A stretch of DNA of 64,000 nucleotides. Source: Gallionella sp. (GTDB lineage: Bacteria; Pseudomonadota; Gammaproteobacteria; Burkholderiales; Gallionellaceae). A program made the position numbers and the translations under genes. The stretch covers positions 41,624-105,623 of the forward strand of contig JAJDNO010000030.1 of the NCBI GenBank assembly GCA_022340615.1, in the 5' to 3' direction. The notes under the pieces are model-generated. The model worked only from the letters and a program-made list of their open reading frames with translations, was not told the DNA's origin and did no database searches. This document shows, in pieces, positions 2,351-49,954 of the stretch. Position 1 is the first letter of the stretch. The number at the start of each line of letters is the position of its first letter.

Positions 2351-3262
2351 CTAATCGGCGATATGTACCCGGTCGCGTCCGCCGTGCTTTGCGGCCAGCA
2401 ATTGCTGATTGGCCAGTTCGATGAGCATGGTTTCGGTGGTATCCCGATTAGGCACGTGAAATATTCCGCCGATACTGACTGTGACCAAGCCGTGCGGGGA
2501 ATCGCTGTGCGGAATATTGAGTCCGCGCACGCGCTCGCACAGTCTTTGCGCGTAGAGGCGTAATGCATCTGCACCGGGGAAAAATGCCACAACGGAAAAT
2601 TCTTCCCCGCCGTAGCGGGCGACGCAATCCGACGCGCGGACGAACGATTTGGCAATACAATCTCCCACCATGCGCAAGCACTCGTCTCCCGCCGCCTTCC
2701 CGTATCGCTCGTTGAACTGGCTGAAATGATCCAGGTCTATCATCAACACCGATATCCCGCTGCGGATGTGCTGCGAAACATCCAGCAGATCGGCAAAGCG
2801 CTTGTCGAAAAAACTGCGGCTGGCAACGCCGACCAGCGAGTCGCTGCTGGCGGGAAGTTCTGGCTTATTTTCTGTCTGGCCTGTTTCCGTTGCGTTCCTC
2901 AGGATGCCGATGAAGTGCGTCAGCACGCCCTGCGCGTTATGAAGGGGAATAACGCTGAATTCACCCCGGAACATCGAACCGTCCTTGCGGTAATTGCGCA
3001 ACGTCACGACACAGCCGGTACCTTTGGCGATCGCGGAAAGCATTAACGTGATTTCGGGCTGATTGGTATCGGTTCCCTGCAGGATGCGGTAATTCTTTCC
3101 GATCACATCGGCACTGCCATAGCCGGTCAACCGGGTAAAGCCATCGTTGACATAGCGCACCGGAAAATCGGGTTGCTGGACATCTACGATAGCGACGCCC
3201 TCGCGAGCCCCGATCAGCGAATTGACCAGCAGGCTCTGGTTTGTGTCTTCACCCGGAATCAT
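2351..3262 (-). CDS. PAS (degenerate LOV-like) plus GGDEF diguanylate cyclase
   Basis: VNDGFTRLTGY..VIGKNYRILQG..NYRKDG; RASD I-site and RYGGEEF. Confidence 0.85.
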   Translation of the reverse strand: MIPGEDTNQSLLVNSLIGAREGVAIVDVQQPDFPVRYVNDGFTRLTGYGSADVIGKNYRILQGTDTNQPEITLMLSAIAKGTGCVVTLRNYRKDGSMFRGEFSVIPLHNAQGVLTHFIGILRNATETGQTENKPELPASSDSLVGVASRSFFDKRFADLLDVSQHIRSGISVLMIDLDHFSQFNERYGKAAGDECLRMVGDCIAKSFVRASDCVARYGGEEFSVVAFFPGADALRLYAQRLCERVRGLNIPHSDSPHGLVTVSIGGIFHVPNRDTTETMLIELANQQLLAAKHGGRDRVHIAD

Positions 3263-3990
3263 GACATGCCTTGCTTTTCCTTCGGCGCGTTCAGGTTCTT
3301 TTCAAGTTCTTCTGCCGGCAGGTATCCCGGCGCCTGTATGCCATTGCCAAATATCAGGTTAGGCGTACCGTTGACATGGAGCTTCTGGCCCAATGCCATG
3401 ACTTTGTCGGTCTGGGTTTTGCAAACCGCATTCGCGGGCCTGATTTTCTTCAGCATCCAGTCTTTCCATGCCTTGACCGGATCGCTGGAGCAAAGCACGT
3501 TGCGCACGATTTCATGCGAGCCCGGAAATATCGGGTACAGGTACAGATACAGCGTGACATTGGTAACGCCGCTCAATTCCTTTTCCAGCCGTTTGCAATA
3601 TGGGCAATTCGGATCGGTGAATATGGCCAGCTTGCGCTTGCCGTTGCCCTTCACTTCTTTCACCGCAAGGTCAAGCGGCAATTTGTCGAAGTCGACCGCA
3701 AACAGCACGCGGCGCCTCGCCTCGCTCAGGTCGCGGCGGGTTTTTGCATCGATCACGCTGCCGTCGAAAATGTATTCGCCCTTTTCGTCGGTATACAGGA
3801 GCTGGTCTCCGATCACGACTTCATACAGCCCCGCATAGGGCGTCTTGACGATGTGTTCGATGTTGCCTATACCGGGAAATTTGCTTTGCAGGGACTGGCG
3901 AATCTCATTCACGCCGGCGTGGGCGGCGGACGACAGGATCAGCAGCACGGCGATCAGCGCGGACATGCCAGGAACAGATAATTTCTTCAT
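3259..3990 (-). CDS. dsbC: Thiol:disulfide interchange protein DsbC
   Basis: Signal peptide, FTDPNCPYCK, VNGTPN. Confidence 0.88.
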   Translation of the reverse strand: MKKLSVPGMSALIAVLLILSSAAHAGVNEIRQSLQSKFPGIGNIEHIVKTPYAGLYEVVIGDQLLYTDEKGEYIFDGSVIDAKTRRDLSEARRRVLFAVDFDKLPLDLAVKEVKGNGKRKLAIFTDPNCPYCKRLEKELSGVTNVTLYLYLYPIFPGSHEIVRNVLCSSDPVKAWKDWMLKKIRPANAVCKTQTDKVMALGQKLHVNGTPNLIFGNGIQAPGYLPAEELEKNLNAPKEKQGMS

Positions 3991-10292: not shown

Positions 10293-11198
10293 ATGAGTGG
10301 TTTCAATTCCGCAGCGGTCAGGGAATATCTGACCGAACTGCAAGAGCTGATCGTCGACCGCATGGAGCAGGTCGACGGCAAAAAATTCCTGCGCGACAGC
10401 TGGGACCGGCCTGAAGGCGGCGGCGGCAAAAGCTGCATACTCGAGGAAGGCAACGTGCTGGAGCGCGGCGGCGTGGCGTTTTCACATGTCAAAGGCGAAA
10501 AGATGCCGCCCTCCGCAACCGCGCACCGTCCCGAGCTGGCGGGCCGCCGCTGGGAGGCAATGGGCGTGTCGCTGGTATTTCACCCGCGCAATCCCTATGC
10601 ACCGACGGTGCACATGAACGTGCGCATGTTCGTCGCGATGAAGGACGGGGCCGAGCCGGTGTTCTGGTTCGGCGGCGGCATGGACCTGACCCCGTATTAC
10701 GGTTTTGCGGAAGACGCGGTGCATTTCCACCAGGCCTGCAAGAATTCGCTTGCGCCATTCGGTGCGGAATTGCACCCCAAATACAAGAAATGGTGCGACG
10801 AGTATTTCTTCATCAAGCATCGCAATGAGCCGCGCGGCGTCGGCGGGATCTTTTTCGACGACCTGAGCGCGCCTGATTTCGACACCGCATTCGCAATCCA
10901 GCAAAGCGTGGGCGACCATTTCCTGTCCGCCTATGTGCCTGTGCTGGAGCGCCGCATGAACACCCCTTACACCGAACGCGAGCGGGATTTTCAGCTGTAC
11001 CGGCGCGGCCGCTACGTCGAGTTCAACCTGGTGATAGATCGAGGCACCATATTCGGGCTGCAGTCCAACGGGCGGACCGAATCCATCCTGCTGTCGATGC
11101 CGCCGCTGGTCAAATGGCGCTATGACTGGCAACCGGAAAAAGGCACGCCCGAGGCGGAACTATACGAAAAATTCCTTGTTCCAAAAGAATGGATCTGA
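10293..11198 (+). CDS. hemF: Oxygen-dependent coproporphyrinogen III oxidase
   Basis: [35 protein letters not shown]. Confidence 0.96.
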
Positions 11199-44782: not shown

Positions 44783-45955
44783 ATGAGCCTGGACCCCCGC
44801 ACCCTGCTGTTCTCGTTGATCCTGACCTACGGCTTGTCGATGATGGGCATATACGTTGCCTCAGCCGGCCGCAAGAGCAGAAAACCGGACGGAATGAGGA
44901 AATGGGCGGCGGCGATGTTCCTGGAAACGCTGTCCTGGGCGCTGATTGCGGCCCGCGGCAAGATTCCCGATTTCTTTTCGGTGGTTGTCGCCAACGGCTT
45001 CCTGTCCGCTGCACTGGCATTGATACTGGCCGCGGTTTATGAATTCCAGCAGCGCCGATTGCCGCGCTGGCAGTATCTGGTGCCGGTCGCGCTGACGGTG
45101 CTGATGGCGGCCGTACTGCAGGAACACATCCGCAGCCGCTTCGTCTGGGAAGGCCTGATCTACGGCTTCCAGATCGTGCTGATCGGGCGCGCGCTGATAT
45201 CCGACACGGATACCCGCTCCGGGAATGCCTGGCGGCTGCTGTTCGGCGGCATCGTGATACTCCTGCTGATTCTGATATCGCGGGCCGGTTTCGGATTGTT
45301 CGGCGAAATCCAGTTGGCCCAGCCGCAAAACACCCTGGAGATCCAGCCGATCCAGCTCATCGCGTATATCGCAGCCATGTCGACTGCGCTGCTCGGTTCT
45401 TTCGGCTTCCTGCTACTGGTCAAGGAACGCACCGACCGGGAATTCATGCACCTGGCAATGACCGACAGCCTTACCCAGATTCCCAACCGCCGCGCGCTGT
45501 CAGAATATGCCGAGCGCTCGCTTGCCCGGCGCACCGGCTTGCCGATGGCGCTGCTGATGATAGACGCGGACCACTTCAAGCTCATCAACGATACCCACGG
45601 CCATCAGGTCGGCGACGAAGTACTATGCAAGCTAGCCTCTCTGCTTTCGGCAAGGCTGCGCGGACATGACCTGATCGGACGCTTCGGCGGCGAAGAGTTC
45701 ATGGTGATCGCGCCGGAAACCGGTGTCGAAGGCGCACTGACACTGGCCGAATCGCTGCGCAAGATCATCGACTCCACTCCACTGGTCACCGCCAAAGGGA
45801 TTATCCCTTTGGCGGTGAGCATCGGCATATCGAATTGTGCCGCCACTGCCAATCGCGAACTGAAAGATATGCTGGCAGAAGCCGATGCCGCGCTCTATGA
45901 TGCAAAACAATCCGGCCGCAACAAGGTAGTATGTTTCGGCGGCGCGAACGCGTAG
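44783..45955 (+). CDS. Membrane-bound diguanylate cyclase
   Basis: About seven TM helices, TDSLTQIPNRR, RGHD I-site, RFGGEEF. Confidence 0.9.
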   Translation: MSLDPRTLLFSLILTYGLSMMGIYVASAGRKSRKPDGMRKWAAAMFLETLSWALIAARGKIPDFFSVVVANGFLSAALALILAAVYEFQQRRLPRWQYLVPVALTVLMAAVLQEHIRSRFVWEGLIYGFQIVLIGRALISDTDTRSGNAWRLLFGGIVILLLILISRAGFGLFGEIQLAQPQNTLEIQPIQLIAYIAAMSTALLGSFGFLLLVKERTDREFMHLAMTDSLTQIPNRRALSEYAERSLARRTGLPMALLMIDADHFKLINDTHGHQVGDEVLCKLASLLSARLRGHDLIGRFGGEEFMVIAPETGVEGALTLAESLRKIIDSTPLVTAKGIIPLAVSIGISNCAATANRELKDMLAEADAALYDAKQSGRNKVVCFGGANA

Positions 45956-46422: not shown

Positions 46423-46716
46423 ATGAAATACAAAATCAATCAGAACGAAAACGGCATCGATATTTCAGTCACCGATGCAAAGAACGACAAGCAGAAATTG
46501 CTGGATGCGTTCCGCGAGTGCCAGGAGGGACGTTGTTCCTGCCCGACGGATGAATACAAGAAGCTGGCTTCGCTTGAGGTTGCACAGGATGAAGAAGGCA
46601 TTCAGTTGCGCCTCAAGTCGAAGGACGGCAAGGTCATCGACAAATCCGAGATCGAGAAATGCCTGGCCTACACTTCTGGGCGAGTGAAGGACAAAGGCCA
46701 GCAACAATCTCGTTAA
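46423..46716 (+). CDS. Small Cys-motif protein of unknown function
   Basis: 97 aa, AAAGGTG SD, CQEGRCSCPTDEY. Confidence 0.75.
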   Translation: MKYKINQNENGIDISVTDAKNDKQKLLDAFRECQEGRCSCPTDEYKKLASLEVAQDEEGIQLRLKSKDGKVIDKSEIEKCLAYTSGRVKDKGQQQSR

Positions 46717-46815: not shown

Positions 46816-46986
46816 GCGCTCGCAGAGGCAATTCTGGAGAGGTCGTCCATTAAATCAATTACGCGTCAACTCATGCTGCATGAGTCGAGCCGCGCAGTTG
46901 AACCTAATCGGCAAAAGTTTACCTAAATGATCAAGCATGCTGGTTCTGCACTGGCAAATCCATTTGAATAGATACGGAGGCTGATC

Positions 46987-47373
46987 ATGTTTACACCCAT
47001 CACGATTCCTTTTGGCGCGAAGATGCTTTTCAATACCGTGAAACTCAAACCTGGCGTGGAGATGGAAGATGTCGAAATGGCCTTGGGCGAGATGTGCAAT
47101 GTTGTGAAGGATCATTACGGTGACGAAAAGGGTGGATTCATCGCCGGGCAGGTGTACCAGTTTTCGGGGTTCATTTCTGACGAAGGTTCGTTGAGCGACT
47201 CGAAGAAGGCGGAAAGTCATGTCGCAATCGTCACTTTCTGGCAATCGTTTGAACAGCACGAGAAATCCCATGCCGATAAGGCATTCAAGGACAAGTTCGA
47301 AGCCCTCGGCAAGCTATGCACGGACAGCAAGGAACTGGGGTATGACATGCTCTGGCAGGGCGTACCGGAATAA
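46987..47373 (+). CDS. 128-aa sulfur oxygenase reductase (SOR)-like single-domain protein
   Basis: GGAGG SD; C37, TFW-x5-H91-E-x2-H95, E116-x2-Y match the recalled SOR catalytic Cys and 2-His-1-carboxylate triad. Confidence 0.65.
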   Translation: MFTPITIPFGAKMLFNTVKLKPGVEMEDVEMALGEMCNVVKDHYGDEKGGFIAGQVYQFSGFISDEGSLSDSKKAESHVAIVTFWQSFEQHEKSHADKAFKDKFEALGKLCTDSKELGYDMLWQGVPE

Positions 47374-49465: not shown

Positions 49466-49954
49466 TCAATGGCTCGCTGCTTTGACCTTTGCAAGTGATT
49501 CGTCGATCGCGTCCAGCAGGAAGGCATAATAAAAATCGACGGTCGTCAGTCCTTCCAGGAAGGTCAGCATTTGCCCGTTGCTGTCGAACAGCATCACATT
49601 GGGCACGCCACTGACATTGTGCTTGCCGGAGAATTTTCGGTAGGTCGTGGGCGTGCCGTCGAAATCGATGAGCTTGCCTTCGCTGCTGCTTTCGATCTGG
49701 CGCAGGATCACCTTGTTGTCAAATTCCGGGTCGCGCTGCATGGGTTGCAAAAAATCTTCCGAAACGGTTTTGCAGTACCCGCAGTCTTCATCCATAAACA
49801 GGACAAGGATGGGAACCCCCTTGCTTTTTGCATCCCTCGCTTCCACCCTGAGATCTTTCACGACCGGCAGGCCTGCTGCATAAGACATCGAGCCAAGGCC
49901 GAAGGCAGCAGCAAGGAGAAAAACGTTTGATACCTGTTTGAGCGCAGATTGCAT
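49466..49954 (-). CDS. Exported thioredoxin-fold protein (SoxW-like)
   Basis: Signal peptide, DCGYC CxxC, VSGVPNVMLFD cis-Pro loop. Confidence 0.78.
   Translation of the reverse strand: MQSALKQVSNVFLLAAAFGLGSMSYAAGLPVVKDLRVEARDAKSKGVPILVLFMDEDCGYCKTVSEDFLQPMQRDPEFDNKVILRQIESSSEGKLIDFDGTPTTYRKFSGKHNVSGVPNVMLFDSNGQMLTFLEGLTTVDFYYAFLLDAIDESLAKVKAASH

Follow-up and report, generated by a model that had tools for sequence, protein, structure and literature searches.

Can a protein of half the size of sulfur oxygenase reductase (SOR) keep the catalytic residues of this enzyme, and in which kind of metabolism would such a protein be found? This question is raised by one gene in a stretch of 64,000 nt from Gallionella sp. 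(the whole stretch is called the window in the following). The gene encodes a protein of 128 amino acids (Table 1), which an earlier note had read from the sequence as a single-domain SOR in a probable lithotroph. We confirmed the ATG-started open reading frame as real from the sequence and from the list of open reading frames. Judged by profile comparisons, the N-terminal half of SOR is the closest characterized relative of the protein, and the catalytic positions are conserved. The family to which the protein belongs is almost confined to Dsr-type sulfur oxidizers.

A conserved family with two subfamilies

A word-indexed search for homologues resulted in 4,338 protein clusters. Sequence identity to the window protein is 79-95% for the best 120 of these 4,338 clusters, whose members belong to Gallionella, Gallionellaceae and Sulfuricella denitrificans (SCD_n01370); over all searches, the nearest homologues reach 95-98%. 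The annotations of the 120 read ‘hypothetical’, ‘ABM domain-containing’ or, by the Joint Genome Institute (JGI), ‘heme-degrading monooxygenase HmoA’, and none of the 120 carries a precomputed Pfam domain. An exhaustive phmmer search of 1.84 billion representatives returned only 238 clusters at 50% identity. In the genome scan the family was found in at least 588 species-level genomes. By these comparisons the gene is well conserved, and it has neither a Pfam family nor a name.

By using divergent members as queries we detected a second subfamily (type 2) with a length of ~150 amino acids and 34-38% identity to the window protein. It occurs in Thioalkalivibrio, Thiohalobacter, Thiolapillus, Thiotrichales, Chromatiales and Thermocrinis, where it is annotated as ‘hypothetical’ or ‘ligand-binding protein SH3’, and it is more widespread than the subfamily of the window protein (type 1). 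Both types have the conserved cysteine, the HExSH motif and the E..Y pair in common, as well as the link to Dsr genomes, whereas type 2 differs in its Lys/Ala-rich C-terminal tail, in its N-terminus and in being nearer to SOR by profile. Since both types co-exist in some genomes, they are probably not redundant.

We evaluated the conservation in 58 diverse homologues of both types (alignment A5). Ten residues are invariant (C37, F51, G54, T83, W85, F104, E116, Y119, W123 and G125) and five are conserved in at least 90% of the sequences (N16, H91, E92, S94 and H95), while the conservation of C111 is below 90%. All residues that the earlier note had listed for the window protein were found in their places (N16, L20, K21, G34, C37, H43, G50-F51, Q55, TFWQSFEQH91EKSH95, C111 and E116-LG-Y119), and the SOR residues that it had given for comparison (H86, H90, E114, C31 and C101/C104) agree with the literature (PMC7398979).

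Relation to sulfur oxygenase reductase

Searching Pfam, NCBIfam and the PDB with the window protein alone gave nothing usable. As single-sequence searches were uninformative, profiles were needed, and we compared these with 177,635 PDB sequences. A profile of 41 sequences ranked SOR (6m35) first at an E-value of 0.14. With the 58-sequence profile A5 the same SOR was again on top at an E-value of 0.0024, accompanied by eight further SOR sequences and by no other ABM protein. The alignment is collinear (query 14-98 to SOR 7-94) and pairs N16 with N9, K21 with K14, G34 with G27 and H91/H95 with H86/H90. The type-2 profile A6 found SOR with 26.9 bits and an E-value of 2.5e-5, covering query 14-138 and SOR 6-132 and placing the type-2 E..Y pair on E114..Y117 of 6m35. 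The only non-SOR matches of like rank were triosephosphate isomerases of Plasmodium, which are not ABM proteins and matched with a helical stretch alone; one single canonical ABM structure (4dpo) appeared in the profile searches, at an E-value of 0.6.

Comparisons of profiles with each other gave a similar picture. In a head-to-head hmmsearch, both hidden Markov models of the family ranked SORs above canonical ABM proteins. When three family profiles were aligned by hhalign to an alignment of 12 gammaproteobacterial SORs, probabilities of 58%, 65% and 46% were obtained (E-values of 6e-5 to 2e-4). After splitting SOR, the family aligned to the N-terminal half with 84% (E-value 7e-6) and to the C-terminal half with 0.4%, and the two halves of SOR aligned to each other with only 51%. 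Among type-2 members, the SOR family of Pfam (PF07682, gathering threshold 25 bits) is the most frequent family, matched by 19 of 19 members, each time below the threshold. The kinship with SOR that had been supposed earlier is borne out at the profile level for the catalytic N-terminal half.

In SOR the iron ligands are His86, His90 and Glu114; of the cysteines, Cys31 is essential, and the activity drops approximately tenfold when Cys101 or Cys104 is lost (PMC7398979). H91 and H95 fell on H86 and H90 in every profile alignment. SOR and the window protein have the spacing W-x5-H-x3-H in common, and none of the 22 canonical ABM proteins from related genomes that served as control alignment shows it. 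By hhalign the type-2 cysteine was placed on Cys31, followed by a gap of 3 residues, and C111 aligns to the first cysteine (C101) of the Cys101/Cys104 pair. By alignment, H91, H95 and E116 would reproduce the iron-ligand pattern of SOR (H86, H90 and E114), and C37 would probably be the counterpart of C31; all four residues are conserved among the 58 homologues, in agreement with the earlier note.

Taken together, the protein and SOR (PF07682; PDB 2cb2, 6m35, 2yav and 7x9w) belong to the same superfamily of ferredoxin-like alpha+beta barrels, are collinear over residues 6-132 of the N-terminal half and share the Asn of beta1 (N9), a Cys on alpha1 (probable counterpart of C31), GF at beta2, TxW at beta3, W-x5-H-x3-H (H86/H90), the first Cys after alpha3 (C101) and E..Y of beta4 (E114/Y117). 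They differ in that SOR consists of ~308 amino acids in two fused ferredoxin-like domains, whereas the window protein has 128 amino acids and one domain. It has no second domain, and none of the structures that SOR uses to form its 24-mer cage can be assumed for it.

Predicted fold

An AlphaFold2 model calculated from the 41-sequence alignment reached a predicted local distance difference test (pLDDT) of 87.5 and a predicted template modeling score (pTM) of 0.79. It has the topology beta-alpha-beta-beta-alpha-alpha-beta (beta 12-20, alpha 26-44, beta 51-58, beta 78-85, alpha 88-96, alpha 98-108 and beta 111-120). Comparing this model with the PDB by Foldseek we observed 161 matches at E ≤ 0.001, with a best E-value of 6e-7, a probability of 1.00 and template modeling (TM) scores of up to 0.83 on the target. 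All of the top 50 were ABM or dimeric alpha+beta-barrel proteins, among them FasU, DR_2100, SnoaB, YgiN, IsdG and IsdI. We are certain from the model that the protein is one ferredoxin-like domain of the ABM/dimeric alpha+beta-barrel superfamily, as the earlier note had expected of a single ferredoxin-like domain. In the model, alpha1 carries C37, alpha2 carries H91 and H95 at a distance of one turn, and E116 is found halfway along beta4. In ABM domains the ligand pocket is lined by these three elements.

Co-distribution with Dsr-type sulfur oxidation

The genome to which the window belongs has a size of 2.27 Mb, a GC content of 57% and a completeness of 99.5%. Another of its contigs (C46) carries TauD, TusA, DsrC-like and Cas6-like genes together with dsrABEFHCMK, and with this dsr cluster the organism is a lithotroph, as the earlier note had supposed. 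We asked how often the gene and oxidative DsrB occur in the same genome; all of the following statistics treat genomes as independent, and sampling evenly over families lessens the effect of shared ancestry but does not remove it. In 201 genomes of the organism's own taxonomic family we counted 62 carriers of the gene and 121 genomes with DsrB, 55 having both (odds ratio 8.7). Within the genus (55 genomes, 36 with DsrB) all 11 carriers possess DsrB, while none of the 19 genomes lacking DsrB carries the gene (p 0.01). The association became stronger in 400 genomes from 321 genera of the class: 63 of the 72 carriers have DsrB and 9 have not, compared to 58 and 270 of the non-carriers (121 genomes with DsrB in total; odds ratio 33, p 1e-29). 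For type 1 only, 21 of 21 carriers in the class sample were positive for DsrB (p 3e-12).

Sulfur oxidizers are also the organisms in which SOR occurs, and of 13 genomes that encode a true SOR, 8 carry a member of the family as well (p 5e-4). Furthermore, two genomes of only 1.1 Mb with 31% GC, both positive for dsrB (G187/L112 and G347/L121), have kept a type-2 gene (147 amino acids) with all conserved residues. The earlier note would have given up its proposal if homologues had no link to sulfur oxidizers; instead, the family tracks Dsr-type oxidizers.

Proposed function and alternative explanations

We tentatively propose, with a confidence that stays a little below even, that the protein is remotely homologous to the catalytic N-terminal half of SOR and acts on cytoplasmic sulfane sulfur as a homodimeric barrel with an H91/H95/E116 iron and a C37 persulfide. 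As a cytoplasmic one-domain protein it would homodimerize like other ABM proteins, the two sheets closing the barrel, and the homodimer, corresponding to the pseudo-dimeric SOR subunit, would have two equivalent pockets, each located between alpha1/alpha2 and the sheet. In both of them a mononuclear non-haem iron would be bound by His91, His95 and Glu116, and sulfane sulfur would be attached to Cys37 as persulfide. The cytoplasmic sulfane sulfur would probably be delivered by carriers of the TusA, DsrE and TusE-DsrC type. The reaction would most likely be an oxidation to sulfite that depends on O2 and proceeds without a 24-mer cage of the SOR kind; beside the Dsr route the protein may act as a side branch or as a safeguard.

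However, several of our observations weigh against this proposal. No family member reached the Pfam SOR threshold (the best score is 21.8 of 25 bits, E-value 9.5e-5). The Pfam comparison that the earlier note had suggested thus turned out positive below threshold for the type-2 relatives and negative for the window protein, which has no match to this family even at E ≤ 10; scanning its whole genome with PF07682 gave 0 matches at E ≤ 1. For type 1 the equivalence of E116 and Glu114 is only transitive, via the type-2 paralogue, and hhalign of alignment A2 put E128 at the place equivalent to Glu114 instead. The register of the cysteine relative to C31 depends on the alignment, being off by one residue (HMMER, A5) or separated by an indel of 3 residues (hhalign). 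A counterpart of C104 is absent and C111 is not invariant, so that the auxiliary cysteine pair of SOR was not recovered. Likewise, hhalign of the family to the alignment of 22 canonical ABM proteins gave 51-61%, close to the values for SOR (46-84%), and the canonical ABM alignment itself matched the SOR halves with 80-93%. As these scores overlap, hhalign alone is not discriminating and describes all of them as remote members of one superfamily. SOR was absent from the top 50 Foldseek matches in the PDB; since Foldseek gave generic ABM proteins and not SOR, the fold alone cannot decide for SOR. The genomic surroundings were analyzed at 87 loci, consisting of 80 species-level genomes (from at least 588 in the scan) plus others. 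No neighbor was common to more than 16% of these loci and most genomes have no adjoining sulfur gene, and type 2 often follows genes for Hsp20 and DegP-like proteins, which points to stress and not to sulfur.

Because no member reaches the Pfam threshold, we regard the protein as a remote single-domain relative and not as a SOR. By sequence comparison, SOR membership fails on the threshold, the size, the number of domains and the second cysteine. The ‘full SOR active site’ claimed in the earlier note was overstated, since only the first cysteine of C101/C104 has a counterpart and this is not invariant.

Three other explanations have to be considered. The protein could be a haem or sirohaem binder similar to IsdG and HmoA that binds, degrades or chaperones a tetrapyrrole by means of N16, W85 and H95, which we regard as unlikely. 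IsdG, IsdI, HmoA and MhuD are single ferredoxin-like domains of similar size that dimerize into a barrel, and they share the Asn of beta1, the Trp of beta3 and the His of alpha2 ten positions later. In IsdG and IsdI this triad is Asn6/Trp66/His76 with the His on alpha2, and sirohaem is a further ligand of barrels in this superfamily (PMC4835899). In the window protein the distance from Trp to His is 10, as in the triad, the JGI name of several members is in line with such a function, and IsdG and IsdI were found by Foldseek at E-values of 3.5e-6 to 2e-5. The sirohaem(-amide) of DsrAB or the haems of DsrMKJOP as candidate ligands would also explain the co-distribution with Dsr. The NCBIfam models of IsdG and IsdI (NF009839/NF009840) match residues 54-109 weakly at E-values of 0.013-0.016, but with 15.4-15.7 bits compared to cut-offs of 115-119, so that a match to haem-binding ABM proteins, named in the earlier note as speaking against its proposal, was only weakly approached. 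IsdG-type proteins were absent from the PDB profile searches, in which 9-12 SOR sequences were present. Moreover, neither the invariant residues C37 and E116 nor the conserved H91 have a counterpart or a role in IsdG-type proteins, and the window family is not linked to iron-uptake genes but co-occurs with Dsr. The Asn/Trp/His triad is not discriminating, because SOR shares all three positions.

It is also improbable, in our estimation, that the protein has nothing to do with sulfur and is an ordinary enzyme or stress protein of the ABM superfamily, such as a cofactor-free monooxygenase with a quinol or another small molecule as substrate. The likeness to SOR would then reflect shared superfamily ancestry only and the link to Dsr a shared lifestyle only. 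The canonical ABM proteins (PF03992; ActVA-Orf6, SnoaB and YgiN) have the same fold and are the best structural matches (Foldseek E-values of ~1e-6), the cofactor-free enzymes FasU, SnoaB and YgiN leading the list, and by hhalign they score almost as high as the N-terminal half of SOR. Many members show weak matches to PF13826 and PF03992, and at 8 of 20 loci type 2 lies downstream of Hsp20 and DegP-like genes. On the other hand, canonical ABM proteins have neither W-x5-H-x3-H nor the set of HExxH, Glu and Cys, and the family profile prefers SOR over them. For PF03992 (threshold 23.1 bits) the window protein remained unmatched, the best relative reached 19.7 bits, and a scan of the organism's genome with this model found two other genes and not this one. 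The very strong association with DsrB over 321 genera and the retention of the gene in 1.1-Mb genomes also argue against an unrelated ABM enzyme. Quite unlikely, finally, is a non-catalytic sulfur carrier or sensor, in which the Cys37 persulfide would take part in a TusA/DsrE/DsrC relay or report on sulfane sulfur or redox state, and the metal would be structural or sensing, without oxygenase chemistry. Such a role would fit a small protein with variable genomic location that co-occurs with Dsr and adjoins TusE/DsrC-family genes at 11-12 of 87 loci, some of these genes being Cys-free and possibly regulatory. However, the 2-His-1-carboxylate and the HExxH helix are the hallmark of the site that binds the catalytic iron in the closest characterized relative, the ABM fold has no DNA-binding element, and at least 15 conserved positions, predicted to line one pocket, suit an enzyme better than a shuttle.

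Gene, upstream region and neighboring genes

The positions of the gene, of its key codons and of the features around it are given in Table 1. The Shine-Dalgarno sequence is invariant across the aligned upstream regions of 8 orthologues. The palindrome upstream of the gene is retained in part at the closest orthologous loci, where it lies beside a conserved GTTGAACC...AAAGTTGAC block, and may be an operator or regulator site. Consensus scans found neither a sigma-70 promoter nor a terminator on the + strand. A sigma-54-like reading of TGGCAA-N5-TTTGA was discarded, as GC is missing at -12.

Table 1. Positions of the gene, its key codons and surrounding features in the window
Feature	Position	Strand	Remarks
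Coding sequence of the single-domain SOR-like ABM protein, type 1 subfamily	46987..47373	+	Stop codon included
Shine-Dalgarno sequence GGAGG	46976..46980	+	6 nt before ATG; read from the sequence
Cys37 codon, probable counterpart of SOR Cys31, helix alpha1	47095..47097	+	Invariant in alignments A1 and A5
H91-E-K-S-H95 codons, HExxH on helix alpha2, counterpart of SOR H86/H90	47257..47271	+	Conserved at ≥90%
Glu116 codon, middle of strand beta4, proposed counterpart of SOR Glu114	47332..47334	+	Invariant
Perfect 7-3-7 palindrome ACTCATGctgCATGAGT	46869..46885	+	~100 nt upstream of the gene; read from the sequence
97-aa CQEGRCSCP protein	46423-46716	+	No family; faint HxsD-like and Leptospira N-terminal-domain matches
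Exported thioredoxin-like protein, DCGYC	49466-49954	-	Thioredoxin_7/2
Gene c3, ~281 aa	50914..51762	-	Most recurrent neighbor of the ABM gene, within 4 kb in 10/87 loci, varied arrangements
GGDEF diguanylate cyclase	44783-45955		
Cyclic-nucleotide-binding protein, 118 aa	46044-46400	+	
Lys/Ala-rich repeat protein, 191 aa	50190-50765	+	
Cyclic-nucleotide-binding protein, 161 aa	52786-53271	+	

At the 87 loci neighboring open reading frames were filtered by GC content at the third codon position; the clusters c14, c33, c47 and c49 are nevertheless artefacts. The recurrent neighbors point to sulfur. About 13% of the loci adjoin a TusE/DsrC-family gene or a dsr operon. A gene of the TusE/DsrC/DsvC family (TIGR03342, above cut-off) lies directly upstream at 11-12 of the 87 loci in two arrangements, either as a same-strand TusE-type gene ending in PKPTGCV, which is found in Gallionella, or as a divergent Cys-free TusE/DsrC-type gene ending in GLPESLRKGGY. 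About 10 loci are positioned 2-3 kb upstream of dsrAB, beside TusA and DsrE2. At locus L103 the order is TusA ... DsrC-like (-), ABM (+), Cas6-like (-), c3 (-), TauD (-) and dsrABEFHCMKL. Across loci c3 has a size of ~240-280 amino acids (the copy at L103, 11099-11821 (-), is located between the ABM gene and dsrA) and matched nothing in Pfam, NCBIfam or the PDB; it may be a partner of the ABM gene. Rhodanese-like neighbors (6 loci) were rejected as candidates, being exported lipoproteins without the active-site cysteine and adjacent to the gene in only 2 loci.

The type-2 gene follows directly after a DegP/HtrA-like protease gene on the same strand at 7 of 20 loci (L106, L110, L111, L113, L118, L123 and L124), and at an eighth (L115) the protease gene is nearby with other genes between. 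An Hsp20 gene often precedes the protease gene. Downstream of type 2, several loci carry CbbQ/NorQ-like (CbbQ/O-like), vWA and QmoA/HdrA-like genes.

The earlier note had also mentioned a Cys-motif protein and an exported thioredoxin near the gene. Both exist (Table 1), but they are not partners, because each is unique to the window among the 87 loci, as are the neighboring DUF2279 and DUF1614 genes.

Some further observations concern the neighborhoods themselves. A solo gene of the Cas6/Cmx6 family (TIGR02807, 126 bits, above cut-off) is located just upstream of dsrA (~2995-3576 (-) on contig C46 and 10416-11093 (-) at L103) beside TusA, DsrC-like and TauD-like genes; no CRISPR context was seen there, and the gene is a conserved oddity of the dsr neighborhood. 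In 5-6 loci (L061, 5396-8620 (-), and 5 others) a gene for an RND-type efflux transporter of ~1,075 amino acids lies directly downstream of the ABM gene and convergent to it. The Lys/Ala-rich repeat protein of the window resembles the histone H1-like HC2 (PF07382, 39.5 bits; cut-off 40). The two cyclic-nucleotide-binding proteins are stand-alone, without an output domain, and both lie near the gene for the diguanylate cyclase.

Significance for sulfur oxidation

In the literature we found no description of a half-size SOR; the ‘ABM’ gene Alvin_1688 of Allochromatium vinosum is a lead only. To our knowledge, the SORs described so far are all large, caged enzymes of two domains from a few thermophiles and acidophiles, and here a half-size relative with SOR catalytic residues occurs in thousands of metagenomic protein clusters. 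From the sequence comparisons we consider the protein a good candidate for a new sulfur enzyme. A more far-reaching and rather doubtful idea is that the family is the living single-domain form of the ancestor of SOR before duplication and fusion. It would then act as a cage-free homodimeric ‘mini-SOR’ with two iron/persulfide sites that oxidizes or disproportionates cytoplasmic sulfane sulfur, forming an unrecognized O2-dependent branch beside Dsr in thousands of species.

If the protein is a haem or sirohaem binder instead, Dsr-type metabolism would nonetheless have gained a new accessory factor. If iron binding and turnover of sulfane sulfur hold true, the main bacterial pathway of sulfur oxidation would be supplemented by a cytoplasmic step that has been missing, the way in which SOR evolved would become apparent, and its chemistry could be studied in a small, tractable model.

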